Assembly (NCBI GenBank): GCA_001724265.1
Contig: MEDY01000117.1
Coordinates: forward strand, 52,192 to 72,191
Direction: 5' to 3'
Length of the DNA: 20,000 bases
DNA from: Rhizaria sp. SCN 62-66
Taxonomy: Eukaryota
The translations under genes and the position numbers were made by a program. The notes under the pieces are model-generated. The model had not been told where the DNA came from and did not search any database. It worked only from the letters and a program-made list of their open reading frames with translations. This document shows, piece after piece, positions 188 through 19,999 of this stretch (position 1 is its first letter; the number at the start of each line of letters is the position of its first letter).

Positions 188-864
188 ATGTCTTCTGGGG
201 CTGAGAACATCGATGTTCAAGAGAGCACCACAAGTGACTTGACAATCGACGACTCCGTTAAGGTACGTTCTCCCTTCATGCACTACACTAACCCCCGCTG
301 ATCACAAGGCTGCCTCTCACCGGTACACACATTTATGTAATACTGTAATCACTTGCCCTTGCGCAGCGCACGGTTCAAAAAATCCCTCTGTGTAGCATCC
401 GCGCGGGCCCGCTGGACGACGCGACCGAGTGGACAGCCCGCTTGCGGCAGGAGCTCATCGCTCTCATCGCGTACGTGCAGATGAACAAGGCCAACGACAA
501 CGACTGGTTCTTTATTGAGTCTAACCCTGACGGCACGAAGTGGTCCGGCAAGTGCTGGTTCGTGCACAAACACGTCAAGTACACGTTCAAGATGCAGTTC
601 GAGATTCCCGTGACGTACCCGGCGTCGCCGTTCGAGGTCGTGCTGCCCGAGCTGGAGGGCAAGACCGTCAAGATGTACCGCGGGGGAAAGATCTGCCTCT
701 CGCTGCACTTCAAGCCGCTGTGGGCGCGTAACGTGCCGCGCTTCGGCATCGCGCACACGCTCGCCATGGGGCTGGGGCCCTGGCTGGCCGCGGAGGTGCC
801 TTTCATGGTCGACAAGGGACTCATCACCGAGGAGGTCTTCGGTAGCGGCGGCAAGGGACAATAG
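188..864 (+). CDS. UFC1: Ufm1-conjugating enzyme 1 (E2-like); join(188..262,367..864), 190 aa if TAG is stop; extends to TGA at 883..885 (197 aa) if TAG is sense
   Basis: Exon 2 reads [64 protein letters not shown]...[52 protein letters not shown]. This matches UFC1 signatures ([14 protein letters not shown] with the catalytic Cys, [17 protein letters not shown]). Exon 2 has no upstream ATG in frame (TAA at 346..348). ATG 188 opens [25 protein letters not shown], which joins exon 2 in frame across the intron. Confidence 0.95.
263..366 (+). other. Spliceosomal GT-AG intron of UFC1 (104 nt, phase 0)
   Basis: AAG|GTACGT donor at 262/263. Pyrimidine-rich acttgcccttgcgCAG| acceptor ends at 366. 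Removal restores the frame (...DDSVK|RTVQKIP..., compare human UFC1 ...DEATRRVVSEIP). The interior has stops in both exon frames. Confidence 0.85.
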
Positions 865-998
865 CAACAGAACGACGCGGTTTGAGGTCACTTGGACTAT
901 TTGCCTTCGCAACTGACCTGGCAAGCAATGGCTTGGTGTGTCATCATCAGGCCACTCGAGACTACATAGTATTATTTGAATCTCATGAATCGCGGTAA

Positions 999-1173: not shown

Positions 1174-4100
1174 TTAGAAGAGCGCGCGGCACATGGGGCA
1201 GGTGCTGTGCCCGGATGACTCGAACCACGTGAGCAGGCAGTTTGCGTGGAACGCGGCGGCACATGTGTGGCACGAGAGCGACGGTAGCGCCACCACGCGC
1301 GCCGCGGCGCCCGATGACGAGCCCGACACGTGGACGGTGCTGAAGCAGATGGGGCAGGCCTCGATGCCCTCGAGGCGATGGCGGACCACGCCGGCCCACA
1401 CCTGCAGCGCGCGCAGCAGCGGTGCGCCCTCGCCCGGGGCCGTGGCGCCGCGCATGAGCGTCTTGACCACGGCCAGTCGCGCGCGCAGCACGAACGACGC
1501 GCCCAGCGCGGCCGAGACCTCGCTGCCGCTGCTGCTGCCACGGTCGTCGCCGCCCGCATCGGAGCTCACGGCAGAGGCGGAGGCGTCGGCGGCGCCTACG
1601 GCCGCGGCGAGCATAGCGCGCCCGACGGCGTGCGTCATCGACACGGCCACGCCCGCGGCCGCGGCGAGCCCGCTGGCCTGAAACGGGAAGCCTGGCGTGG
1701 GGCGCAGCGTCAGACACAGCACCACGTCGCCGTCGTTGCCCGCCGCGCCCGCCGCGCTGCCGGTGAACTTGGTCAGCAGCGCCTCTGCCTCGGCCGACAG
1801 GCCCGTCCCGCCCTCGTCCGCCGCGGCGGCGGCGGCCGCGGCGGCGGCGGCCGCGGAGACGTGAGTCGGCGCGCGCAGCGCCATGGGCTTGGGGGTGAGC
1901 CCGAAAGCCTTGGCGGCCTTGCGGACCGCGGAGGCCGCGCCGCCGGTGGCGTAGACGGCGCGCAACATGGGCGCCGAGGGGATCGACGTCGGCGCGCCGG
2001 AGATGCTGTAGCTCGCGAAACCACTGTTGCTGCTACCGCTGCGATGAGACGGCGTGGCAGAGGACCACCAGGTCGCGGCGGGGCCAGAGCTGGCGGCAGC
2101 GGCGGCGGCGGCGGCAGCAAGCGCGGCGTTGGCTGCGGACACAGGCGGCAGCAACGGCGTTAGGCACTTGTACGACGCGTTGTTGTCGCCCGCGGCCGTC
2201 GCCGCGAGGAGCGCCGCGGCGACCTTGGCGCGCTCCACGACGGCGACGGTGGCGATGGCGGCGTCGTACAGTCCGTCCTGGCAGAAGACAGCGAACGCGG
2301 CGTCGGCGTCGGCCACGGCGGCCGCGGCGGCGGCGCGCGCAGCGATGCCCGCCGCCGCGCCCGCGCCCCCAAGGCGCCGCAGCGTCGGCTCCAGCAGCGT
2401 GGCGGCCGCGGCGTCGGGGGCAGCCCCGTGCAGCCCGAGCCGCGCCGTCGCGGCCGCGGCCTGCGCCTTGGCCGTCAGCACCAGGGGGGCAAACGCGCGC
2501 GCCATCAGCAGCGACGGCGAAGCCACCGCCACGTCGGCGTCGCTCGCACCCGCGCCCCCAGAGGCGCCAGCGCCGGCGTTGGACCTGCTGGCCAGCAGAC
2601 GCGGGTTCGCCGCGGCCAGCAAACGCAAATGTGCGACGGCGAAGGCCGAGGTCGCGTTGGCGGTGGCGCGTGCGGCGGCAGGATCGCTGAGCGCGAGCGC
2701 GAGCAGCACGCGCCACGCGACAGGACCGAAAAACTGCGTCTGGAAGACAAGTTCGGCCTCCTGCGCGCGCAGCTTGGCCAGGCGCGCGGCCGCGGCCGGG
2801 GACGGGGCGCCGCACGCCAGCGCGGTCGCGGCGGCGGCGGCCGCGGCGGCGGCCGCGGCGGGGCGGAGGCGGGCGCCGCGCGATGCAGAAGAGCCGGAGC
2901 CGGAGCCGGCGCTGCTGGCGTTGGCCGCGGCCGCGGAGGCGCGGGGCGGCAGCGCACCGTCCGCGAGCGCAACGACAGCGGGGGCCGCAGTCTCGGTCGA
3001 GTCATCGGTGTTTTTGACGCCGGTGGGCTCGGCGACGGCGACGGCCAGCGGCGCCCTTGCAAGGCCTGCAGCCTCCGGGGCGGCGGTACACGCCGTGTGT
3101 GAGTTGTAGAGGAGCGCGGTCATTGACGTGACGTCAAGCCTAATGCTGTCGTCGTCGCCCTCGCTGTCGTCGTCATCATCCGAGGACGACGGCGATGACG
3201 CAACGTTGGCGACGACCACGCCGCCCCGGCCGCCCTTGCGCTTGCTGGCGGTCTTGGCACGCGCCCTGCGCGCCTTGGCGGCTGCAGACCGGGAGCCCCG
3301 CGCCGCCATGGTCTCGGTCGCGGCGGTGATGGCGCCCGAGAGCGCGGTCCAGCGCGGGCCCAGCCCGGTGCCCACGGCGACGGAGCGCAGAAGCCGCGCC
3401 GCGACGGAGCCCGACGCGAGCAGCAGCGGCCAGTGCCAGCGCCACGCGCCCGCCTCCCACCCGGCTACGGAGGACTCGGTTGAGACGGACTGTGTGGCGG
3501 CGCGGTGCGCGGCGAGCGACTCGCGGTAGCTGATGGCGAAGTACCCCATCGAGGCGTCGGTGGGCGCGACGGCCCCCGCGTGCAGCGAGAGAAGCGTGAC
3601 GGCAGTGCGCGCGACGCCCACCGCGCCCGCCGTGTTGGCCGCGACGGCGGCGGCCACGGCGGCGGGCGAGGAGAGAGTGACGTCGCAGGGCGCGTTGGGC
3701 GCGGCCTGGGCCAGCGCGGCCACACTCGCGGCATGGCTGTGCTGACTCGCCACCTCATGGCTGCCGTGGGGGAGCTGCGGCGCGGCAGCGACAGTGAGCG
3801 CGGTAGGGACGGTACCGAGGAGCGAGTCAAGCAGCACGGCGCCCCACGGCGCGTCCTCGTCGTGGTCAATGCCGCTGTCATAGGAGTAGTCGTCAGTGTC
3901 ACGGCCATCGTTGTTGTTGAGACCGCTGCAGAGCGCTGCGACTGCGTCGTCATCACCAGCGTCGCAGTCGCCGTCCTTGCACTCGACGCTGTCGGTGGTG
4001 ATCGCGCCAGCAGTGTCAGCGGCGCAAGAGTAGTCGGGCAGCGCGTGCGCCGTCTTGCCCAGCGCGACGTCAATGCCGAGCATCATCACTACGCTCGCCG

Positions 4101-7100
4101 GCGCCGCGGCCTCGACCGCAGCCGCCGCGGCCGCCGCGACGCACCCGGCGTGGCCGCAGCGGCCGCAGCCCGCGCCCGCGCCCGCGCCGCCGGCGAGCCC
4201 TGAGCTCACGGCCGCGGCGACCGCGGAGGCGGCGGAGCGGACCGAGGCCGCCGCGGAGCCCAGGGCGGCGCGCGCAGAGCTCCACAGACCGGACTCAACC
4301 TTCTCAGCATCAGCGCCAGCATCCGCCTCAGCGTCGGCGTCGTCAGAGTCCGACCCGTCGACGACCTCAGCGGTCGCGGTCGCGGCAGCGGCCTCGGCGG
4401 CAGCGGCCTCGGCGGCAGTGGCCTCGGCGGCGAGCCCGGCCTCCGCAGCGGCCGCCACTACGACAGACTGCGCGGCGGCGACGAGCGCGGCGTGCGGGAA
4501 CGCGCACGCCAGCGCGCGGCGCGAGTAGCTCACGGTCACGTGTTCCGTGGCTTCCGCAAGGAGCCGGTGCAGCGGCGCGTCCGTCGGCAGGCGCAGCGGC
4601 AGCGCGGGCGCCAGCAGCCAGCGGCGCGCATCGCTCGCGGCCGCTGCTGTGGCCGTCGCGGCATCACCGGCGCTGAAAGCGCTCGTGGCGCTGGTCGCGG
4701 AGGCGAGCTCGATGACGGCGGCGCAGGCGAGGAGGTACGCGCGCGCTAGGCACCACGGCGGCAGCACCGCGGCCGGATAATACGGCGCGTCGGCCTCGTT
4801 GCCAGCGGTGCTGACGCTGGCGCTGGCGCCCGCGCTCGTGGCAGACGCCGCAGCAGAGGGAGTGGCAGCCTCGGGCGCGCTCAGAGGGGCGGCGTTCGCG
4901 GCGGCGTCGGCGGGCGAGAGCAGCGACGCGTACATAGGGTTGCTGATGAGGTCGTCGTCACCGCCATTGCCGTCAGCAGCGCTAGCAGCAGCGGTGGCAG
5001 CGGAGTTGGAGTCGCTCGCGAGCGTGAGCCCAGGCAGGGCCAGGCCCTCGCCACTGCCGTCCGCGTCGCCAGTCTTGCCAGCGGCGTCCTGACTGGCCTC
5101 CGCGGTGCCGACAGCCACGCCGGCCGCGACGCCCCAATAGTAGCTGGCGGCGACGCCGCCGCCGTAAGCGTTGCCGTCGCCGGCGCCGACCCCGGCCTCG
5201 GCCGCGGCGTCGGCCTCGGCCTGCGCGGCGGCGGCCGCGGCCGCGGACAGCGCCCCGCCGCGGCCGCCGCGCGCGGTGAGCGCAGCGCTAGCGGCCGCAG
5301 CGACCGCGGCGGAGGACGAGGTCGCGGTGCGCAGCTTGGCGGTCTCGCCGAGCGGGCCCGGGGCCGGGCGGTACAGAGCCAGACGGCGCAGCGCGTGCGG
5401 CAAGTACCGACCGGCGCGCTTGCTGGGGGCTGCACTCGCGCTCGCAGCGGAGGAGACTGCGGCGGCAGCAACGGTAGGCAGCACAAGGCGCAGTAGCGGC
5501 CACGCGACGCCCGCGGCCAGCGCGGCGGCGGGGTGAGCCAGCAGCGCGATGAGCGTGTCGACGGGGGTCGCAGTGGAGGCGGCGCTGCTGTTGCTGTTGC
5601 TGGGCGCTACAGCGGCCAGCACGGCGGCCGGCAGCGCAGTCGCGGTCTCACCAGTCGCGCTGCTGCTACTGCTGGACGTGAAGTGCGAGAGAAGAGTGCC
5701 GACCGCGACCGCGGCGCTCGTCAGCGGCGCGGCCACAGAGTTTCCTCCAGAGGCAGTGACCGTGAGCCCGGTGACCGTGAGCGCGGTGACCGTGAGCGCG
5801 GCCGTAGCCTGGCTGAACGGACTGGGGATGGCGACAGGGCATTGCCACAGCAGCAGCGCGGCTGCGTCGCCCTCGCTCTCCGACACGGCCGCACTCACCG
5901 CGTTCGCTGCGTCGCTGGACGCAGAGGAGCCAATGACGGCGGCGGCGGCGGCGGCGGTAGGCGTGTGGGAGGGCGAGGCGGCGGGGGACGTGGCATAGAG
6001 CGAGCGCAGCACACGGTGCAACGGGGCATGCGCGCAGGCGCCGACCGTGGAGAGCAGCGGCGCGCGCGACAAGGCCGCTGCGGAGCCACTCTGGACCAGC
6101 GCCTTCGCCACGCTCTGCCCAGTCGCGCCCTCACCGGACGCGGACGCGAGAGACTGGATGGAGGCGGGCAGCGTGGTGAAGGCGGCGAGCGCGAGCAGCA
6201 GCGCGCGGGCCGCGGCGTCGTTGCGCGCGCGCGTGCACAGCGCAGCCGCGGCGGGCGCGGCGGCGAGCGCAGCGGCCACAGCAGCGGTGCCCGTGGGCAG
6301 CAGACTCGCGCCGAACGCGGAGCCCGCAGCGACGGCCAGGGCGCTGGGCGCGGTGTAGCTGTGAGCAGCGAAGCCGGTGAAGGACGACCCGGCGGCGGAG
6401 ACGGAGAGCAGCGAGCCCGCAGGCACCAGGATGCCCTCGCCTGCAGCAGCATCGATCGCGTCAGCGTCGTTGTTGGCAGCGACAGAGACGGATGAGGCAG
6501 TACGGTGCAGCTCGGCGGCGCTAGTGAAGATGACAGTCACGACGGCGGCAAGCGCGGCGGCGACTGACGCGGACGGCGCAGCCGTAGCGCGGGCGGCGGA
6601 GGCGGAGAGCGTCTGCAGCAAACGCAGTAACGCGTGTGCGACAGCGATGCGCGCGTCTAAGGGGTTCTTAGACAACGCGCTCGGCAGACACTTAGACTCG
6701 CCCGCGATGGCGGCGGCGACGCGTGCGAGTGCCGCAGCGGCAGCGCGGGAAGGAAGCTTCGCCGCAGCCGCAGTCGCAGCGGCCACAGATACGATGGCAA
6801 CGTTAGTAGAAGCTGCAGCGGTCACGGCAGTAACGGTAGCGACCACGCTGTCCACGTCGATGTTGCCACTGTTTGCTGCCACGACGCCCGCCTTCACAGC
6901 GGCGACATAGGCCTCGCGCGCGCTGGCCGCGAGCTCGGCGCTCGACACGCGACTCGACTTCGATAGCGCCTCCGCAGCGGCTGACTGCGCAGCGTCGCGC
7001 GCGCGGGACATGGCGGCGACCGCGCAGTCCTCCGCAGCCGCCACGGCTGCCACAGCGCTGTTACTGTTGCCGCTGCTGTTCAGGAAGCGGCTCGCGACCG

Positions 7101-10100
7101 CGGCGGCGTTGGCGACTGCGGTGAGTGGCGCGACCCGGCGGCGGCCTCCGCAGGCGCGCGCGTTGGGCAGCAGCTCGCCCGCGTCGTCAAACTGGTCCGA
7201 ACCGTAGTATTCGTTGCCGCCATCGGGCAGCCACCATCCGTCGCCGTCGGCGGCCTCAGTCAAAGTCTCGGTGCTCGCGTCCGCGTCGGCGTCAGAATCA
7301 GCGCCTGCATTGGCGAGAGCAGCGGTGAGGCCCTTAGTGACAACGGCGCGGCCATCGACACGGCGGTACTTAGCGGGCAAGTACGTTTGCAAGTCCTCCA
7401 GCAGCAGCGTCTCTGCGGCAACAACCGCGGCCGGCGGCGCACTCGCAGTGTTGTTTGCACCAAAGCCAGAGCCAGAGCCAGAGCCAGAGCCGGAGACGGA
7501 GCCGGAGACGGGGGGACGCAGCGCGGCGGCGGCCGAGGCGGCGGCAAAGGGGCGCGCAGCGACGGCGAGGATGACGGCGACGGGCGCAAACGCGGCCCCA
7601 AGCGGGTTACTCTCACTGCAGACAGCGCTAGAGCTCGAGCTGCAACTGATTACGGCGGTGTTGTTTGCGAGAACACCGACGCCCTGGAGCAGCGCGAGCA
7701 GCGGGGCGAATGCGGGGAGACGCGCAGGGGGGATGACGCCGTTCGAAACAGACGCCACGGTGACGGACTTGAGTCCCTCACTCGCGCCCGCAGTTGCAGT
7801 GTCGCAGCGAGCGTAGCTATGGAAGAGGAGCGGGGTATCCGTAGTGACGGCCGCGGTTTCATGATCCCGCACCGCGTTGTTGAACGCCGTCGCGCCCGCC
7901 ATCGCCCACAGCGCGTTCGCGGCCAGCGCGACCGTGGCCGCAGCGGAGCAGGGCATCCAGCCCGCCGCACCGGCGGCGCCCGTGGCCGCCGCGGCCGCCG
8001 TGGCAAAGGCCGCGAGCGAGGGCGCCGACGCGGCCGCGGTAAGCGGAGGCAGCGGCAGCGGGTGAGCTGGCGCCCCGGCCGCGGCGCGCTCGGAGGCCGC
8101 CGCGGTGGGCAGCGCGGCGCCGGCCAGCGCAGCGGCGGCGAGGCCCGAGTTTAGGGGGTTCGCGGGGGACAGCAGCGACAGCGCGGCGGCGAGCACGGGC
8201 GCGGGCGCCGCGGCCGAGGCGGCGGCGGCCGCGGTGGACGCGGCGGCAGCGGCGGCGGCCACGGCGGCGGGAGACGCGGCGTGCTCGCCGGCGGTCAGTA
8301 TGCGCGCCACGACGGAGCCCAGCGCTGCAGTCGCACCGCTGCTGCTGGTGCTGCTAACAATGGCTGCAGTGCTGCGAGAATCGACAACGGGCGAAAGTGC
8401 GGGCAGCAGCGGCACGGCCTGGCTGCCGCTGTCGGCGGTCACTGCGACAGTCGTGGCGGCCGTGAGGGCGGCGGCGGGCTCAGTGGCCGCGGTCGTGACG
8501 TTGATGACGGCCTCCATCGCGATCAGGTCAGCCAGCACCATCGCAGGCGCAACGGCGTAACTCACTGCACTGGCGCCGAAGCTAGAGTTGGCGTTGGAGG
8601 CAGCGGCAGCGGCCAGGACACGCGGGAGACCGAGGCCGAGCAGCACGGCGCGCCATACAGGGCCGTGGAGCGCGCGGAGGCGTGCGGCGCACTCGAGCGC
8701 GCACGCGGGCGACACGGGTACAACAGCCCCGTCGGCAGGCACGGTCGAGAGTGGCGACGCCAGGGAGGACGACGCCGCCGCAGTTCCATCGATGTTGGTG
8801 TTGCTCGAGAGTGCGGTGAGCAGAGCGCGGGGAATCGCGCCCTGCGCGCCGGCCAGCAAAGCCAGCACGTACGCGCGCGGCGGCAGCAGTGCGGCCAGCA
8901 CAGTCGCCCACGCCGGGGCAGCCTCGCCGCCACACACGGCCGTATCGCGCACCTTGGTGTCGGCGCCGGTGTGCGTGAATGACTCGCAGTGCGCGCGCTC
9001 GCCGTCGCCGGCCAGGCCGACCCCCGCCTCGCCACTATGGCCCGCCGAAGCGGCGGCAGCGGCGGCAAGGAGCGCGGCGGCGCGTGCGACCCAGGCCTCG
9101 CCCCACATCTTTTGCGGCAGCAGCGCGGGCGCGGCGGCACCGAGTCCGGCCTCAGCCTCCACGTCGCCGCCCTCGGTCCCCACAGCGCTGGAGCCAGAAC
9201 TAGCGGAGGCGAGGGTGGCGAGGGTGGTAAGCAGCACGCGGTCGCGGCGCGGCATGTCGCGGAGGTGTGGCACCAGGGCCCACACCGCTGCAGATGCGCT
9301 CACGGTCGAGGACGCGAAGGCGCCGGAGCCCGCGCCCACGGTCACTGCACTCGCGCTCGCGCTCGTCGTGGCAGCGGCGGCGATGGGGAGCAGAGGCAGC
9401 GCGGGGTGGCAATGCAGCTCGGCGCGGGTGAGGTGCGCCGCAAGCGGGCGCGCGGCAGCAGCGAGCGCGGCGGCCGGCAGCGCGCCAGTGGGGGCAGCGG
9501 CGGCCGCGGCGGCGACGGCGGCGGCGGCCGCGGCGCGCAGGGCGGGGTCGGGAGCCGTCCACTGCGTCGTGATGAGGGACGCGAGCAGCGCATTGGCCGC
9601 GGTCACGGCAGCAATGTTGTCGCTGCTCTTGTGCGCGCCATTGAGGGCCGCGGCGGCGATGATGGGCGTGAGCGCGGTGATGATGGCGGGCAGCGCGGCA
9701 GGGTGCACGCCCGTCACGGCGGCGGCGCGCGCGGCGGCGGACCTGCCGAACGACGTCGTCGACACGTTGTAATAGTAGCCATCGTCGTCGTCGTCGTCAT
9801 CCTCGCTGTCGTCGCCGTCCTCGTCTTCGTCCTCGTCCTCGTCCTCGTTGCCGTCGACGTCGCGGCTACGAGAGCGCGTGAGAGCAAAGCCGCCGCCCGC
9901 AACGCGCTGCAGCCGCGCGGCGACGCGGGCGGACGCGGCGGGAAACAGCCCGTGGCAGCGCAGGGCGCCGGTTAGCGCCTCGGCAGCGGCAGCGACGGCC
10001 TGGTTCGCGGCGGCGGCGCCCGCAATGGGCTCACTGCTAGACGCCGCAGAGGCAGAGGCAGCGGCAGCGGCGGAGCCGGGAGTCAGCAGCAGACGCAGCG

Positions 10101-13100
10101 TGGCCGTGAACAGGCCGCCGGACGCTGCATTCGCAGTGGATCTAGAGCTAGAGCTGGAGCTTGGGGCGAGCGTGGTCGCGGAGGTGGCAGCGGCAGAGGC
10201 GGCGGCGGGGGTGGCACGCAACAGCGTGGACATGAGAGACAGCGTCAGCTCAGCGGTCTGCGGACCGCGTGCCAGTGCTGCAAACGGAGACATCGCGTTG
10301 CTAGCGCAAGCGCCCTCGGTGGTGATGTAAGTACCTTGGGCGCGTGTGTAAGTGCGCTTGCAGATGAACCCGGCAAGCGCCGCGTGAGCCAGCAGCAGCC
10401 AGCGCGCGGCGCGGGCGCGGGGGCGCGCGGCCACGCCTGCGCGCGCCCGCGGCAGCAGCACGTAGCCCGTGGGCAGCGCCGCAGAGGACGCCGCGGCCTC
10501 ACTTTGCTGGATGGCCTGACTTTCGGGGCGGTAGAGGCGCGGCAGCATGAGCAGGCCGGACGGGTCCTGGCTCTCGGCCAGGGTCTCCGCGGCCGCCAGC
10601 GCGGCCACGAGCGCGGCGCTCTCGCCGTCGCCGGCGCTGGCGCTGGCGTCGTCGTCGTAGCAGTCGGCGGCGGCGGAGGCGTCGGGGTCCGTGTCCGGCA
10701 GAGTGGAGATGAGCAGGTCGACGACCTCGGTCGCGGCGGACTCGGCAGTGAGGCCACCGGCCGCAACGCCGGTCGCCGTCGCAGCAGAAGCACCAGTTGA
10801 GCCACTGCTATTGCTGTTGCTGTCGAGCGCAGAGACGGAGGCGGCGACCGTGGCCATGACTGAGTAGAGCCCGGCGCACGCCCACAAGCACACGGTGTCG
10901 CTGCCGGCGTCGCTCGCGTCCAGACGCTCGGCGAGGAAGTTAAGCCGCTCGTCCACGAAGTTAGGCCGTGTCGCATCATCAGCAGCAGCCGCGGCGGGAT
11001 CGGCATGGAAGCAGACGCGCGGGCGGGCAACGAGGGGCGCAAACGACGCTGCAGCTGCCGGCAACAGCTCGATCGTGCAACCCGAATTCGCGGTCGGATT
11101 GGGGCCGTTGTAGAGCGTGGGAGGGATCACGGTGCATGCGCGCGTGGCAGCGGACGCGGCGGCGGCGGCGCGGGCCGCACGCAGCGCCGCCGCCGCAGGG
11201 CCACGGGCGCCAGCATCCACGGCGCCAGAGCCGCGTCCGCTGCCCGCGCCGTTGTTCTGGCAGAGGGCGGCAGGCAGCGCGGCGGCGGCGGCTGCGGGCG
11301 ACGGGGCGTAGGCGCGGACTGCGGCAACGAGCGCAGGGAAAGCCGGGTCGAGCAGGGGCAGCGCGGCGAGGCTGTTGCGGGTCGCCACGGGCACCAGCGG
11401 CTCGCGGTCACCGCCAGCGGCGGCGAAGCTGCCCTCGGGATGCGAGTTGCTGTAGGACGTCATGTCGACGGGGTCGAGCAGCGAGAGCAGGAGCACGTGC
11501 AGGTCCGCGAAGGTCTTGTTCGCGGTCGCCGCCGGGTAAAACGACAGACGCAGCGGCTGAGAAGACGGCGCGAAAGCGGTGTGTGCATTCAGAGTGACCG
11601 TGAGCAGGCCGAGCAGGTGCATGTTGTTGACGCAGTCGGCGGCAAAGGACGCCAGCGAGGCGGCCGCAACGGGGGCCAGGATGTGGGTGCGCACGGTCTC
11701 GGCCACCAACGCGCTCACCGCCGAAATCGTAGTCGCACTCATAGCCTCGGTCGCAGAAGCAGAGGCAGAGGCAGAGGGAGTGGCAGTGGGGTTGGGCACA
11801 GTGAGGGCGACGATAAGGGCAGCGGCAGAGGCGGAGTCCTCAGCAGCAGTCATCTTCGCGTTGCAGTTGCTGTTCTGAGCATTGGTGATCGTGAGCAGCT
11901 GCGCCCACCAGTCGCCGGGCAGCGTCGGCATCGTCGAGTCGGCCTCAAGCTCACAGCTCTCCCAGTCAAAGCCACCGTCGCAGACTGCAGAGGCGGCTGC
12001 CGCAGCTGCACCCGGGCGCTCAAACGAGAGCGCGCCGGTGACGGGGTCGACGCTCCATAGTAGCGAGGCGGGGGCTGCGCGCGCCAGTGAGAGCAGCGTG
12101 CGCGCAGTCAGCGTCGAGAACCACTCACCGACGGAAGGCTCCGAGAAAAACGTCTCTGTGATAGACAGCAGCGCGCTCGCAGCCGCAGTGGCGAGCGAGT
12201 CGGTCTGCACAGCGCCAGTGCCAGGGCTGCTGGTGAAAGCAGCGGGGCCCAGGGTGGTCGCCAGAGTGTAGATCGCAGGCAGCACGAGGTCCGCGGCGAG
12301 TGAAAGCGAGACGGCACGGGCCTTGGCGTTCGCCGACGTAGTCGCAATTGCACCGCTAGAGCTGGAGCAGTCACCAGAAGCGTTTGTGGTCGTGGCGCGC
12401 CACAGAGCGGCCACGGTCTCGGCGGAAAGCGCGAACAGAGCGCGCGCGGCGGCGGACACCGAGGGCGCGAGCGGCGTCGCAGCCACAGTATTCGCCGCAG
12501 CAGAGGACGAGGACGCAAAAGCAGAGGCCGAGGCAGAAGTCGGGGCCGGGGGGTCGCAGCGGGAGAAAAGCTCCGTCGGAGTAACCAACCACGCAGCAGT
12601 CACGTTAATAGCCGTGGCGGCGAGGGCAGACTCTGAGGCCACACTAGGCGCAGCCGTGCCTAGAGCGGCCGCAGCCACCTCGCCGTCGTCGGCGTCGGTG
12701 CCAGGCACGGCGTACCCCAGCGCCGCGGCGACCGTCGGTGACGCCGAGAGCGCGGCCAGCGCGGGGGGCTGCGCCATCGCGCCCGCAGCCACGGCGGCCG
12801 CCGCGGCGTTGCTGTGTTGAGCAGCCGCCGTGGCCGCAGTGTGGCTTGAGTGCGAATGCGGGTGCGCGTGCAAGTGTGTTTGTGAGGCCGGGAGGATGGT
12901 GGTTGCGATCCCGGTCCACAGGGAGCGCAGCACGGTGATCACCGACTCGGGGGCGTCGGTCGGCCACTGGACGCGCCACCCGCTCTTCTCCTCCACCACA
13001 CTCCCACTCGCACTCCCAGCGGTGGCAGCAGCCTCACTGGGGCCGTTCTCGGTACTTCTGTCGCTTTGAGTAACCGTGAGCGCGGTGACCGTGCGCAGCA

Positions 13101-15696
13101 GCGCGGCGGCGCGCGCGGGCACCGCGGCGTCCCCCGCGGCTGCCTGTCGGGCCAGCGAGGCGGCGAAAAGCGGCAGCAGCCGGTTGGCCAGCCCCGCCGC
13201 CGTGACCGTCAGCACCAGCGGCTGCTGCGAGACCGCGGCAGTAGCCGCCGAGACAGAGACAGCGGAGGCGGGAGGGATCGCGGCCCCGGCGGCGACGGCG
13301 GCCAGCTCAGGCCGCACCTTCAGCACTGTGAGGGCCAGATCCCATGCACTCTTGACGTTGCCGCGGGCCGTTTCGCGCGCCAGGACCGAGAAAATGCCCT
13401 TGGCGACGGTGGGCAGCGTGGCATGTGCCGTGACAAGGCGCGGCGCTGACTGGACGAGGACGGTAAGCAGCTCGACGGTGGCGCGGCGCAGGTCAGCCGC
13501 GGCGTGCGTGGTAAGCGGCAGCAGCGCGTCGAGCGCGGGCGCCGCGGCCGCGGGCGGCAGGTAGAACGGCGACGACGCGAGCAGACTAGAAGGATTACTC
13601 CCTGCACGGGACGACAGCGCGGCGGCGGCGGCGGCAGGCGCGGAGGCCGTTGCGACGAGCCAGGGGTCAAAGGCGCATGCCGCCACCGTCGCGGGCTCCC
13701 TGGCCGCAGCGGCAACGTCACCGGACAGCAGCGTGTGCATGACGCCACCACTATGGGGCGAGGCGGGGGAAGAGCCGGCCTTCCTGAGCGCGAGAAGCGC
13801 GCCGGCGGCCGCGGTCCAGCCGCTGTGGCAGATGGCGAGCTCGCGGCACCAGGCCGCCGTGCCAGCCAGCACTGACGCTGTGACGCGCGCCCAGCGGTCG
13901 CCCTCGACGGCCGCGGCGGCCGAGTCGGCGGCGGCCATAGTAGAGTGGCGGGGGACGCCGGCGAGCGCGGCGAGCTGCGCGGGGGAGCAGTGCAGGTAGA
14001 GGCGCGTTGCGGCCAGCCAGGTCGGCAGCGTGAAAGCGAGGAGCTGCTGGTGCGACCACCAGGGGCGGGCAACGCAGCAGTCGCCGCCGCTCGCGCCATC
14101 ACGCGCAGCCGCGGCCTCGGTCTCCGTCTCGGTCTCCGTCTCCGGGCTGCGGGGGGACTGGCGTGGGACGGGCACGGGGACTGCGGCCGCGAGCGTGGTC
14201 AGCAGAGCAGTCTCGACCGCGCGGGCGGCCTTTGCGGCGGTGCTCTTCTTCTTGGAGCTCGAGCGGTCGCCGTCCGCAGCGACTGCAGCAGGAGCAGCAG
14301 CAGCAACGACCGGGGCGGCGGTGGCTGCGTCGGCAACGGCGTCGGTGGCCGCACGGGTGCCCGCAAGCACCGCGGTCCACAGCGTCGCGCAGTCCTCCTC
14401 GCTCATGGCCACTTGGCCGCCGCTCGTAGTCGCGGCCGCCGCGCTACTGTGGGCGCGGGCGAGCACAGCGGCGGGCGCAGACGCATGGGCCGGCACGGAG
14501 GGGAAGGCTGCGTTGAGGCACTCGAGCGCGGTCTTGGCGACGCGGGGCGCGCGGTCATGGCACAGCAGCCACGTGTGCGCAAACAGGTCCTCGATACCGC
14601 CGCTGGAACCGGCACCGCTGTGTCCTGCGCCGGCAGCGCCGCCAAAGCCAGAGCCATGAGTGTGACCGTGAGCGTGGCTGTGGGCGTCTGAGTGGGGGCT
14701 GTGGCGGCGGAGGAGAGCAGCGCGGACTGGCGGCAGCGCGCGCGCGAGCGTCATGAGGGGCGCAAAGAGGCGCGTGCAGACGAGCTCGCGGACGTGGGGG
14801 TCCGCGTCGAGGCAGAGGCGCGAGTGCAGCTGGCACAGCGCGGGCAACGACTCCAAGAGCGCCTCCAGCGACAGCGGCGCGCTCGAGACGGCAGCGTCGC
14901 CGCCACTCACGCTCGTACTCGCAGACGCGGACGCTGTCGCTGTGGGGGCTGTGACGCCGGGGCCAGCGCTAGGCGCGGCGAAGGCGGGCGCAAGCGCGGC
15001 GACGGTCGCGGCGAGAATGGCGCGCAGCCCGTCGAGGCTCTTGACGCGCGTCACTGAGTCGCGCTTGGAGAACTTGCGAATTGCCAGCGACAGGTGCGAG
15101 TCGGGCGAGTCGAGCGCGGCCAGCTCCGAAACCAGGAATGCCGTGCCCGTGCTCGTGGGGTACAGTGGCATCGGGAAGCTGCGATTTGGCGCAGCAGCGG
15201 AAGAAGCAGAGACGGAGGCGGAGGCGGAGGCGTCAATGGCTGCATCGGAGCTCTTGTCCTTGCTAGCCTTCTTGTCGTCCTTCTGCTTGTCGTCCTTGGG
15301 CTCCTTGGAAGACTTCTTGGCGGGCGTGTCGGCGCTGACGGAGATAGAAGAAGCGGGGGCGTCCTTCTTGTCCTTCTTATCCTTCTTGTTGTCTTTGTCC
15401 TTCACAGCATCAGAGTCTGCAGACGCATCGGCCTTTTTGTCCTTCTTGTCCTTCTTCTCCTTCTTGCCATTCGCGGCAGTGCCGGCGTCGACGATGGTAG
15501 AGGTCGTATCGTCAGCGTCGCCCATGCCACTAGACATCATAAACGAATCGAGGGAGAAACCACCGGCAAAAGCACCGCCGCTGCTCCCGCCGAAGTTGCT
15601 GCTGCCGAAGCCATCAAAGCCGCCGAAGTCACTGCCGACGTTCTAGTCGGCTGCGGAAGTCTTGGAAGCCTTGCCCGACTTGGAAGGTTTAGACAT
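1174..15696 (-). CDS. LTN1: Listerin / LTN1 (Rkr1) ribosome-quality-control E3 ubiquitin ligase, greatly expanded (4840 aa counting the in-frame TAG at 15643..15645 as sense; 4788 aa from ATG 15540)
   Basis: C-terminus LLRALQVWAGVVRHRLEGIEACPICFSTVH...LPSLSCHTCAAAFHANCLLTWFESSGHSTCPMCRALF* matches the LTN1 RING (human ...[23 protein letters not shown]...[38 protein letters not shown]). N-terminal domain motifs DSHLSLAIRKFSKRDSVTRVKSL, LCLDADPHVRE and WLLCHD...ALECLNAAFP match LTN1 ([41 protein letters not shown]...AFEAAFP). In-frame ATG 15696 gives MSKPSKSGKA...GFDGFG, similar to human RPSNSGRA...GFIGFG. Confidence 0.9.
1177..1356 (-). other. C-terminal LTN1-type RING (C4HC3) domain
   Basis: CPIC-x-CHTC-x-H-x2-C-x3-W-x-CPMC, with a Ser/Gly/Ala insertion in the first loop. 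Confidence 0.9.
5756..5800. repeat. Coding tandem repeat, 3 x 15 nt (gtgaccgtgagcScg), encoding ALTVT-ALTVT-GLTVT in LTN1
   Basis: Units at 5756-5770, 5771-5785 and 5786-5800 differ at one base. Confidence 0.8.
7466..7491. repeat. Coding hexamer microsatellite (CCAGAG)n encoding a (GS)n linker in LTN1
   Basis: gccagagccagagccagagccagagc seen directly. Confidence 0.75.
9781..9860 (-). repeat. Low-complexity acidic tract (DVDGNEDEDEDEDEDGDDSEDDDDDDDG) within LTN1
   Basis: (tcg/tcc)n trinucleotide-like run on the + strand. Confidence 0.8.
15250..15470 (-). repeat. Lys/Asp-rich low-complexity insertion (KKEKKDKKDKK...KKDKKDKKD) in the LTN1 N-terminus
   Basis: Repeated ttcttgtcc units on +; translation shows KKD repeats. 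Confidence 0.75.
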
Positions 15697-16350
15697 CGAA
15701 GTCAATCAGAGACTAAATGTGCTGGAAAAGGGGTGATATGGGCGTCTCGAGAAGAGACTCTGCGATGATGGACAACAGGGTGCGGAGCAAGATCCAAGGA
15801 GTGAGATAAGGCATTTAGAACGCATCTATCGATGAGGTAATTAAACAAACAAATGCAATCTCTTGTTGAAAATATGTGGATCGTTTCATGTCTGTACTAT
15901 CGGACTTTTATGCCTGATTTCAGCACAAGTTTTTTTCGCGCACATCGCCAGATTCGTTTGTGGTGGTTGGCCAGATGCGTATGCACAGCGTACCTACGCA
16001 AATGGACACAATAACCGAGTCGATCTTACCTACAATCACAATCACTCGAAATGATGTTCTGGTGCCACGTATAATCAAAATAATTCCATGATATGGCGAG
16101 CTGTATTATCAAAGGGTGATCGTTCAGGAATGATATAATACTCGTATTCTCCAAAGTTGCACCTGAACGTGACGTGTAACCTGGCGGACACAGGCGGCGT
16201 AGCCGATGATATCTTGTCATAAACGCGACAGACCAAGCATGGCCAAAATTTACAAACCAAATATGTTCAAAATCAAATCCGTAATAATCGTCTGAAGATC
16301 AATTTACACGATACTGACCACCACGGTCATTGCGCTAATCGCAGCATGAA

Positions 16351-18885
16351 TTAGTGCAGCTTGAAGTACGAGGACATCGTACTCCCCTGTTTACTACAAA
16401 CACCCATGCTACAAAACTTCTCAAAGCAGTACCTAACGGTGTTGGTGAACGGTTTATACGAATGCACCTGTGGCGCCTCCGTTGACATCGAGTCCTGTAC
16501 GATGCGGCCGACTGGCACAGCGCCGCGCAGCAGACTGGCCGGGCACGGCTTGAAGACGAGGAATACCGGTGATCGGTTTGCTGGGGGCAGAGGAACGACA
16601 TTACGAGGACACATGAGCAGCGTACCAGGCGGGTAAACAACGGTGTCATCAGGCCGCATGTACTCGCCGTAAGCAACATCGGTGTAATCCCCCAGCGTCA
16701 GCGGCGCAGTGGCGCACGGCGCTGTTCCGCTGTACAGTGTGACGTAAGGCAGCGTCGCCGCTGTGTGGCCGGGTGGCACAAAACACTGGTGTAAGTGCCA
16801 GCCCAGAGCGTTGTTCTTGGATGCCAACAAGAAGTGAACTTGATAACTTGGAAACCGATTCAAGTCGTAAAACAGCAAAAAATGGTGCGTGTCGTGGCGC
16901 AGAGTCAACGGATTGAAAAGCACTGAAGTGGTCATCTTTGGATTGCCGCATGACTCGTAAATCAAGCGTTTATGCGCAAGAATACTTACGCGTGCCTTAG
17001 CCTGCAACAGCTGCAGCGCTGCCGCTGACGGAACAGTCGCTGATTGAGCTTCAGTCAAAGCTTGCGCCGCGCCTGCGTTAGGACTGCGTTGTGAGCCTGC
17101 CTCGCTCGTGTTGCGAGTGGTTCCGTCGTTGCCATTGCTGTGCAAGACTGGGGCAGGGTAACCACATTGTTTCTCCAGGGTCCGACTAATATGCGCCTCG
17201 AACGCCCTCAACCAGTTTCCGTCGTAGCTCTCTGTGAAGGCACGTTCGTCCTTGAAAGCTTGTTGTACTTCAGAGTCTACTGTTGTTTTTGTTGCTGACA
17301 TAAAACACGCCGCCTCTGGCATATTTTCAAGCTGTTTGCTTAACAGCGTAAACTCCTTTAGTGCATGTCCGTCTTGCTGCATAACTGCCGAGTAGCGCAG
17401 GATATCAAGAGCCTGAGGTCCACGCGCATCAACAAATGTTGTTACAACGTCAGTGTCAATCGGGGCATTTGCTTGGTTGGTGCAAGTTCCTGCCGGTGTG
17501 CTTGCTTCAGTGCTGATTGCAGCGCCAGCGATTTGACGATCTTTTTCAATACTTTTGGTTCTAGAAACATTGGCATCAAGCATCACGCGTAGCACGCGCA
17601 GCAGCCTCGCAGCACTGGTATCATCAGCCTTCGTCAAATCAGTGCAAAGAGCGATGGCAAAGAGTGTGGAGACGCAGCATTGAACAACTCCAGTTTCGAG
17701 CATCAGTAGCACCGTAGAAGCGGTTGTGATGCCTGAGGAGTTAGCAGAGAGAATCGCGTCACACAAATGTACACCAAAAGTAGAAAGGTTGTTAACCCCC
17801 CATTTGTTCTCCTTTGGAATGAGTGCCCGTAAAAGCTGTTGAAACCCATTGTGAGAGACAAGTTGTGCCGCATACGAAGGGATCGCTTGCGTCAAGCGGA
17901 TCACAATTCGGACTGAGTGCTCGAGCACCAGCGTGTCCCAAGAGCTAACGACCATCACACGCCCGGTTACAGCATCCAAGTGCGGTTGTGTAAAGACCTT
18001 AGCAAGTGTGGTATCATCAACAGCAGAGGTGATCATCTGTAGCAACTCCAATACGTGAACCTTGAACACCGGTGTCGCACGCGACGAGTTGTACCACTCA
18101 TAGTCGGACAGCAATTGCGAGAACTCCTAACTCAGAATGAACTCATGGGAAATGCTTTGAACGTATTGACTAGCATCAAAATCGGCAGCACATGTACGTA
18201 GCACATTAATCAGCATTGTGTACGCACTGCCACGCACCACCGAGTTGCTGAATTGCCTGATGTGCCCCAGGACGACATAAAAGTGGGGCACGCATGTGGC
18301 GACAGACGCAAAAGGCACAGGCACACCTTTAGAGCACACCTGTGACACAACACCAAAAACGCTGCACATAATATGGAAGAAAGAAGGATTGGGATGTGCT
18401 GATTGTTCGGCTTTGGAGCAAAAATACTGCATAAAGGACATTAGATACTCCAGTGCTGCTGTCTTCACTGCGAGAGGAACAAGCGAGGATTGTGAAATAA
18501 TGTGCATCAGGGTTATCATTCGCGTGTCAACGTTATCGCCAGTTATGACACCATGCCAAAGCTGCCTGCTGAGGACAGAAAGCATGGTGCTTGGCGCAAA
18601 CACGTCGCATCCCTTTACGTCCATGTCGTGGTTACTGTTGCCTGCACAGACGTGTTGGACAATCTTGACAAGAGTATCTTGCCTATCACGCTCTTCATGG
18701 TCAGTACATAGCTGAAACGTGGATGTGAACAGCTCAGCAATGTTGCTCTCGCATAATATTGCGTTCCGTACAAGAGGGTCATTGTTGCGACTACGGACGC
18801 TGATAGCGGCTTGCAGTTCATGCAAGCCGGTAGTACTCGATGAGAGTGAAAGTGTCGAGGCAATGGCATCGTAGAGGCGTTCCAT
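16351..18885 (-). CDS. Uncharacterised protein of about 844 aa: ARM/importin-alpha-like helical N-terminal half plus degenerate cyclophilin-like C-terminal domain; one in-frame TAG at 18127..18129
   Basis: ORFs 18127..19050 and 16351..18114 share a frame and are separated only by TAG followed by GAG TTC TCG CAA. First in-frame ATG is at 18885 (MERLYDAI); upstream TGA at 19057..19059; terminal TAA at 16351..16353. Amphipathic helical repeats (SVRSRNNDPLVRNAILCESNIAELF; QLVSHNGFQQLLRAL; LMLETGVVQCCVSTL) resemble ARM repeats on both sides of the TAG. Confidence 0.6.
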
Positions 18886-19324
18886 GCTAAAATTCAGCGT
18901 TGTAACAGGAACTCCAGCCAATTGGTTCGAAAGAACAGTGCTTGGTGGGACTGAAAAGTCGAGCTGCCGTCTTTGCGAAAAAGGGGCAACACTGACCGTG
19001 GGAAAAATGACAGGATATAACCCTTGTGAGAGGTTCCACGAAATGCGCAAATGATATCACAATGCAATGGTTACTTTAAATGCATATACATCTTCAAAAT
19101 GAACTTCGACTGTGATTCTATGGCTACGCTATCGTCTTTCAATTGTGACCACGAGCTGGTTGGACCAATACATTTCTGACCACAAATGAAGCACAGACAG
19201 AATTATCGGAGATTTCTCAGTGAAATCATCGCATCTCATAACAAGTGCGATGCATCACATATAAATGTATCGATTCAATGACATTTTAACATAATATTCT
19301 GAAAAGTCGTTCATCAAAAGCTTG

Positions 19325-19330
19325 TTTATT
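19325..19330 (-). promoter_or_regulatory. Candidate polyadenylation signal AATAAA for the ABCA gene
   Basis: tttatt on + (AATAAA on -) about 157 nt downstream of the ABCA TAA. Confidence 0.3.
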
Positions 19331-19486
19331 CCAACCGCCATGAAGTGTCGGGGAAGTTAGGGTAGAGGGCACAATAACTTATGAGTATTTGCGTATCACA
19401 AAGCAAGCATATCTCAAATTCTATATAAAAATACGATCGATCAAAATAAAAGCATACAGTTCAACGACTGCGTTGTCAAGACGCAC

Positions 19487-19999
19487 TTAAGCGCGCTCAA
19501 CCAGATCACGCTGCTCCTGCGCACGCACCATCTGGATGAAGATCTGTTCCAGATCAGTGTCCGACACGGAGTACGAGTCGAGCCCGACGCGCGCCTTGTT
19601 GCTCTCAAACGCGCGGAACACCGCCGACGTCGGCCCCGCCACAGCCTTGTCAATGCGCACCTTGAACGTCTGGCCGTGGCTCTCGATCACGGTGGTGTTA
19701 GGATAAGTAGCCTTGATCCAGTCGAGCGCAGAGTCCTCAGCGCCCGCACGCGTCTTGCCGACGACCTGGTAGCCCGAGCCAAAGCGCTGCTTGAGGTGGG
19801 GCGCCGTGCCGAGGCAGCGGAGCCGGCCGCCGGTCATAATGCCGATGCGGTCGCAGAGCGCCTCGCACTCCTCCATCGAGTGCGTGGTCAGGATAACGGA
19901 ACGGTTGGCCATCGTGGACGAAATGAGCTTCCACATCGAGCGACGCGCCTGCGGGTCCATGCCCGTCGACGGCTCATCCAGGAACACGATCAGCGGGTT
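19487..19999 (-). CDS. ABC transporter subfamily A (ABCA), C-terminal part of NBD2 plus regulatory domain; 5' part outside the window
   Basis: [23 protein letters not shown] (Walker B/D-loop), [23 protein letters not shown] (ABCA-type H-loop), [31 protein letters not shown]; ends at TAA 19487..19489. Confidence 0.93.

Follow-up and report, generated by a model that had tools for sequence, protein, structure and literature searches.

The listerin-type gene and its extended reading frame

We analysed a window of 20,000 nucleotides (nt) from contig MEDY01000117.1 (positions 52,192 to 72,191, Rhizaria sp. SCN 62-66), and in particular an in-frame TAG near the 5' end of a giant open reading frame (ORF) of the listerin type. 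The minus strand also carries an adjacent gene of no named family, here called gene B, and the 3' part of an ABC transporter gene; UFC1 lies on the plus strand. The window is metagenomic and occurs in runs from bioreactors, wastewater and activated sludge. Its organism, an uncultured eukaryote whose genes are GC-rich and poor in introns, recurs in wastewater and bioreactor metagenomes.

The main ORF of the listerin-type gene (1174..15540, minus strand) has 4,788 codons, ends with TAA at 1176-1174 and encodes a giant, Ala-rich protein. Its last 83 residues (1177..1425, minus strand) correspond, by their PDB matches, to a listerin-type RING with the preceding helix. The top PDB matches of this region were two listerins, 3j92_w (E 5e-13) and 8aaf_e (E 1.8e-10), each aligned over its last ~75-85 residues; the alignment with 3j92_w covered chain residues 1692-1765 of 1766, and the best non-listerin RING in PDB reached an E of 0.0084. 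The alignments start only ~25 residues before the RING, in front of which listerins have an RWD domain. In Pfam, zf-RING_2 scored 24.5 bits on the C-terminus, under its cut-off of 27.3, and a search with the last 1,274 residues found nothing but RING families. An earlier note on this DNA had taken the gene for a listerin-type E3, with which these best matches agree; the gene encodes a listerin-type RING E3 ligase, of which only the C-terminus matches solved listerins.

Sequence variants were scored in the 24 rows listed at 5004-17130, out of a table with 13 rows more; a further 16 listed positions at 19547-19901, in the ABC transporter gene, were left out because the contigs there are piled up and probably come from other organisms. 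Twenty-two of the scored variants fall inside the listerin ORF. Since 13 of them are synonymous and 9 non-synonymous, which indicates purifying selection, we regard listerin as a working gene.

Upstream of this ORF on the minus strand, ATG 15696-15694 opens the frame MSKPSKSGKASKTSAAD, which is followed by TAG at 15645-15643 as codon 18. Another 34 codons, rich in Gly, Ser and Phe, lead from the TAG to the double ATG at 15540-15535 (codons 53-54). From 15696 to 15540 there are 156 nt, that is 52 codons, so that the two starts are in frame, and the translation agrees in every letter with that of the earlier note. We refer to these 52 codons (15541..15696, minus strand), examined by translation, by codon score and by GC content at third codon positions (GC3), as the N-terminal extension. 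A TGA lies in frame four codons upstream of ATG 15696, and from the TAG on the frame has no ATG until 15540. Out of frame, an ATG at 15614 starts a 25-codon ORF that overlaps ATG 15540. If the mRNA includes 15696, ribosomes would have to pass two upstream ATGs to reach 15540, one of them with an ORF overlapping that start, which favours initiation at 15696.

Stability of the TAG codons across assemblies

The TAG of the extension (15643..15645, minus strand) was looked up in contigs assembled from other metagenomic runs (X runs). Three of these contigs belong to studies distinct from the possible source of the window. X2 record 8 covers 15437-19606 and differs at one letter only, 17130; X4 record 16 covers 15530-19344 with no differing letter; both TAGs, that of listerin and that of gene B described below, are unchanged in each. 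X6 record 22 covers 15529-15761 and has one differing letter at 15666, which changes codon 11 from Ser to Ala and leaves the listerin TAG as it is. A JGI contig (L001) is identical to the window over 15530-19322, both TAGs included; it may overlap in origin with the X-run assemblies. Runs X5 and X7-X16, with small word shares, were not counted as habitat evidence. The earlier note had named a sequencing error at the TAG among what would overturn its proposal, and in these independent assemblies, taken as contigs, the TAG is unchanged. Both the listerin and the gene B TAG are genuine and stable across samples.

X4 record 16, X6 record 22 and L001 all break at 15529-15530, and X2 record 8 breaks at 15437. 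These positions (~15430-15530) adjoin the edge of a 9-nt-periodic, Lys/Asp-rich repeat, and because of this repeat short-read assemblies of listerin fragment there.

In a poly-A RNA library (X8), gene B is covered by contigs at 18307-18830 and listerin at, for example, 14183-14554 and 14559-14859. Another X8 contig, of unlisted extent, covers 15666 without a difference. It hints weakly at a transcript that reaches into the codons upstream of the TAG; carry-over of DNA is possible. Gaps in X8 coverage, such as depth 0 at 17130, were not used as evidence.

Coding potential of the extension

The extension was scored by log-odds of codon usage, with a training set that contained no listerin codon and none of the adjacent spacer, so that the test was not circular. 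Codons 1-17 scored 0.50 bits per codon in frame, a value that 1.0% of 3,000 samples drawn from held-out spacer equalled or exceeded, and codons 19-52 scored 0.64 bits per codon, which none of the 3,000 samples reached. For comparison, bona fide listerin codons 53-104 scored 0.58 bits per codon, and the verified intron of UFC1 about 0 in all frames. The spacer upstream of ATG 15696 (15697..16350, minus strand) is non-coding by composition, with GC of 0.39/0.48/0.43 at the three codon positions. Four 52-codon blocks of spacer scored −0.28 to −0.68 bits per codon in the frame of the ATG, and were negative in all other frames except one, at 0.03. GC3 rises in the same direction, from 0.43 in the upstream spacer to 0.65 in codons 1-17, 0.71 in codons 19-52 and 0.77 in the next 150 codons.

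Thirty-four open codons in GC-rich DNA are unremarkable by themselves. The extension goes beyond chance because both flanks of the TAG are coding-like in frame, the spacer is not, and the TAG is stable across assemblies.

A second in-frame TAG in gene B

Gene B (16351..18885, minus strand) has 844 codons from its first Met, ends with TAA and encodes a helical-repeat protein of no named family. It is interrupted by a TAG at codon 253 (18127..18129, minus strand), which stands between 252 and 591 open codons, and frame 0 scores best on both of its flanks. The next Met after the TAG is 31 codons on; spacers elsewhere in the window measure 430-650 nt, a distance so much longer that two separate genes are not plausible. 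Gene B had no match in Pfam or PDB, and its best score in a language-model atlas was only 0.78. A scan of metagenome contigs returned the same organism only (L001), together with an irrelevant match of 16 residues (L002). Its codon bias contrasts strongly, within 5 kb, with that of the genes on either side (GC3 0.54, against 0.83 in listerin and 0.85 in the ABC transporter gene).

Each of the two complete minus-strand genes of the window holds exactly one in-frame TAG. TAA ends all three minus-strand genes with a 3' end in the window (listerin, gene B and the ABC transporter gene), no in-frame TAA or TGA occurs in 6,052 codons, and no gene in the window requires TAG as terminator. The second in-frame TAG, taken together with the TAA terminators, strengthens the idea of a translated TAG.

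Proposed decoding of UAG and alternative explanations

Because the TAGs are stable and lie in adjacent, intact genes, their flanks are coding-like, the genes end with TAA or TGA and no credible intron was found, decoding of UAG is the best explanation of these observations. We give slightly better than an even chance to the proposal that UAG is a sense codon in this organism, or at any rate no terminator, and that listerin starts at 15696. Translation of listerin would then begin at ATG 15696, with the UAG of codon 18 decoded as an amino acid, and UAA, and probably UGA, would terminate the genes of the organism. Gene B would be a single protein of 844 codons, and UFC1 would be longer by seven residues and end at TGA. 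Listerin would keep its extreme N-terminal segment, which in the mammalian protein is a helix pinned by NEMF. The mechanism would presumably involve a tRNA with anticodon CUA, an altered eRF1, or both. From the window we infer both that UAG is decoded at all and that this would hold genome-wide.

Several points weigh against such decoding. There are only two or three TAG codons within 20 kb, and the four gene ends are too few for significance. For a sense codon, 2-3 of 6,052 codons would be very low usage. A purine after the stop codon makes a good termination context, and both in-frame TAGs have one, which argues against mere leakiness. The 20-kb window contains no tRNA(CUA), and the searches yielded no orthologue of listerin or gene B in which a residue could be aligned with the TAG. 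The RNA data are assembled contigs, not reads, with 15 of 933 joints listed. As to the codon scores, the extension is of low complexity and partly a tandem repeat of 15 nt and 9 nt, and the scores of its 52 codons are therefore not independent of one another; codons 19-52 also score positive in frame 1 (0.41 bits per codon), and a recent relic of coding sequence would give the same scores. The coding signal of the extension is real, but weaker than the sample counts imply. For listerin alone, translation of a 17-codon upstream ORF followed by re-initiation at 15540 is mechanistically feasible. Finally, in ciliates with reassigned UAG at least one UAG is reported in 78-91% of genes (PMC11687900).

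Under the standard code, listerin would start at 15540 or 15537 behind the 17-codon upstream ORF, and gene B would carry a fixed nonsense mutation, as a young pseudogene or a truncated protein; the upstream ORF itself may be what is left of an ancestral N-terminus that a nonsense mutation, since fixed, separated from the rest. We think this improbable, although it is how the sequence reads when taken literally. Re-initiation is generally possible where, as here, the main ATG follows a short upstream ORF by ~100 nt, but the out-of-frame ATG 15614 sits between that ORF and 15540. A relic would keep its coding-like composition, and is thus compatible with the codon-score test. The much weaker codon bias of gene B and its lack of a recognisable family also suit a decaying gene. 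However, two independent nonsense events would be needed, both to TAG and in adjacent genes, both would have to have reached fixation in strains distinguished by the 24 scored variant sites, and gene B would have remained without a second stop in 844 codons. Moreover, a listerin under purifying selection would lack the N-terminal element that tethers the mammalian protein to the 60S subunit and NEMF (PMC4321881).

That each TAG lies inside a short spliceosomal intron, with a length that is a multiple of three and open in frame save for the TAG, has in our view a still smaller chance. Canonical introns do exist here (that of UFC1 has 104 nt and reads GTACGT...CAG), and frame-preserving GT..AG pairs that span the TAGs are numerous: 47 of 242 pairs of 18-400 nt at the listerin TAG, and 136 of 310 pairs up to 400 nt at that of gene B. 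Up to 160 nt, however, the frame-preserving pairs at the listerin TAG have only two donors, GTCGGG and GTCTAA; use of the latter would abolish the ATG, and neither resembles GTACGT. On inspection of the sequence none of codons 1-17 begins with GT, and none of the 11 frame-preserving pairs up to 160 nt around the TAG ends at it, both in agreement with what the earlier note had claimed. Gene B offers a candidate at 18237-18127 (GTGCGT...TTAG, 111 nt) with a fair donor, whose last three letters are the TAG itself, but its codon score is typical of coding sequence in gene B (rank 8 of 23 blocks, frame 0 best by ~0.5 bits per codon), whereas the verified intron scores about 0. Introns are sparse besides, with none in the 14.4-kb listerin ORF, and it is unlikely that two introns would by chance both preserve the frame and both have a single TAG as their only stop.

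Recoding of these sites in an organism for which UAG is a normal stop, by programmed read-through or by mRNA editing such as adenosine-to-inosine (A-to-I) conversion of UAG to UGG, we rate no higher than the introns. The sequence CAA-TAG-CAA at the end of UFC1 partly resembles a known leaky context, but neither in-frame TAG stands in a known leaky context (GAC TAG AAC in listerin, where the earlier note had already read GAC-TAG-A as no classic leaky stop, and AGT TAG GAG in gene B). It would be unusual for two adjacent genes each to have such a site, and among the listed X8 differences there is no T>C at 15644, a weak point in view of the unlisted extent of the contig at 15666. In fungi, A-to-I editing is reported to rescue genes with premature UAG (PMC11156358, PMC5496914), but the presence of UFC1 argues against a fungus, UFMylation being reported as lost in most of them (PMC10183829).

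Comparison with known codes

Nuclear codes in which UAG alone has become a sense codon are known but rare. UAG is reported to be read as Leu in the uncultured rhizarian exLh, as Gln in Iotanema spirale and as Ser in Scotinosphaera, with UAA, together with UGA, still serving as stop, and Protocruzia and several phyllopharyngean ciliates are reported to have UAG-only sense codes as well (PMC5304391, PMC11687900). The window shares with these codes the in-frame TAGs in intact genes, the ends at TAA or TGA and the lack of in-frame TAA and TGA. It differs from the UAG-only ciliates in its far lower use of UAG, with two or three codons only, and its genes, unlike those of these ciliates, are GC-rich (GC3 0.83-0.85 in two of them) and intron-poor.

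In Blastocrithidia, Condylostoma and Amoebophrya all three stops are described as ambiguous or reassigned. There too TAA terminates while another 'stop' occurs in frame; the window differs from them by having no in-frame TAA or TGA in its 6,052 codons and by its canonical cis-spliced intron. Filamentous ascomycetes, in which premature UAG is reported to be edited stage-specifically to UGG by A-to-I conversion, have in common with the window a genomic in-frame TAG in functional-looking genes. Unlike in most fungi, where it is reported lost (PMC10183829), UFC1 is present here, and no editing signal was seen at minimal RNA coverage.

We give an even chance to a bolder reading, by which a non-ciliate eukaryote has on its own reassigned UAG to an amino acid while keeping UAA and UGA as they were, and would be a new lineage with a decoupled code, perhaps at an early stage and at low usage. 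Nuclear codes that separate UAG from UAA are described as few (PMC5304391, PMC11687900), and each informs on the uncoupling of termination and decoding. If the reassignment is true, a lineage with GC-rich genes and very low use of UAG would be informative on its early stage. It would also follow that gene callers using the standard code truncate or split proteins; here the N-terminus of listerin would be lost and gene B halved.

Search for the listerin N-terminus and length of the protein

The listerin-type gene resembles listerin/Ltn1 of mammals and yeast in its RING and helix at the extreme C-terminus and in being long and helical. In contrast to known listerins, its N-terminal domain was undetected by sequence. 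PDB searches at E up to 10 with the N-terminal 420 residues, with 230 residues and with three compact blocks of the N-domain returned no listerin, and the 60-residue extension alone had no match at all. TAL-effector matches of one N-domain block in PDB were rejected, being the sum of 11 weak repeat matches. The N-terminal 420 residues had no phmmer match at E up to 0.001 among 1.84 billion representatives, and the listerin families of Pfam, including Ltn1_1st (PF22958), did not match the N-terminus at E up to 10. Word searches found no orthologue either, among long proteins with residues 1-420 or among shorter proteins with the C-terminal 361 and 91 residues. In the language-model atlas a listerin N-terminal cluster ranked second (0.91) among generic HEAT families. 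A single-sequence AlphaFold2 model of residues 171-599 was helical, with a mean predicted local distance difference test score of 43.6, which is unreliable.

The earlier note had argued from homology, pairing a motif of the extension with the N-terminus of human LTN1 and tentatively placing the TAG opposite a Gln. The paired stretch is short, of low complexity, rich in Gly, Ser, Phe and Lys and partly a tandem repeat. This part of its interpretation found no support in the searches, and nothing in the data points to Gln; the listerin-type gene, the coding-like extension, the real TAG and the lack of a credible intron stand.

In mammalian listerin, residues 13-27 are reported to form an extreme N-terminal helix that contacts NEMF and helps tethering to the 60S subunit (PMC4321881), and deletion of this helix weakens ubiquitination once the RWD contact is impaired. 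By analogy, an N-terminal extension of this kind would matter functionally. The sections seen of a structural study of ribosome-associated quality control (RQC; PMC12215860) contain nothing on the listerin N-terminus.

With 4,788-4,840 residues, depending on the start, the predicted protein exceeds the solved listerins (1,766 residues in 3j92_w and 1,562 in 8aaf_e) in length by a factor of 2.7-3.1, and 1,364 of its 4,840 residues (28%) are Ala. Listerins are described as keeping a well-conserved overall length, which spaces two contacts with the ribosome (PMC4321881). A listerin of nearly three times the usual length would challenge the idea of length as a conserved molecular ruler between these contact sites. 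ARAGORN called an 88-nt tRNA-Glu(CTC) at 10590-10677 (plus strand), antisense inside the listerin ORF; in sequence so rich in GC the call is probably false, and Rfam at gathering thresholds found nothing in the whole window.

UFC1, the ABC transporter gene and other features

The UFC1 gene (188..885, plus strand) matched PF08694 with an E of 8.1e-77 over profile positions 4-154 of 155, and the match starts at the boundary of exon 2. Exon 2, from 367, has no start codon of its own; the ATG at 188 opens an exon of 25 codons (188-262), which is followed by the 104-nt intron (263-366, GTACGT...GCGCAG). The gene ends CAA TAG CAA CAG AAC GAC GCG GTT TGA, with TAG at 862-864, TGA at 883-885 and six codons between them. 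Read as Gln, the TAG would make four Gln codons in a row. It stands, however, past the conserved domain, since the Pfam match extends only to residue 153 of 165. A scan of a collection of metagenome-assembled genomes found no UFC1 orthologue. A trypanosomatid origin, suggested by the same-strand genes, the giant intronless ORF and a polypyrimidine tract, was rejected on account of the canonical cis-intron of UFC1.

At the other end of the window, 19487..19999 (minus strand) encodes the C-terminal 170 codons of an ABCA-type transporter (PF23321, R1_ABCA1, E 1.9e-07), with a TAA end and no in-frame TAG. Differences in several X2 and X8 contigs cluster at 19547-19901, in the nucleotide-binding domain, and probably reflect related ABC genes of other organisms or paralogues, not strain variation. 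No common promoter or start-context motif was found at a fixed distance from three start codons in the window.

The genes of UFC1, the UFM1-conjugating enzyme, and of listerin lie side by side and converge, their stops ~290-310 nt apart, and both proteins act in stalled-ribosome quality control. Recent papers are reported to tie UFMylation to RQC at the endoplasmic reticulum, and the adjacency of the two genes may be coincidental.

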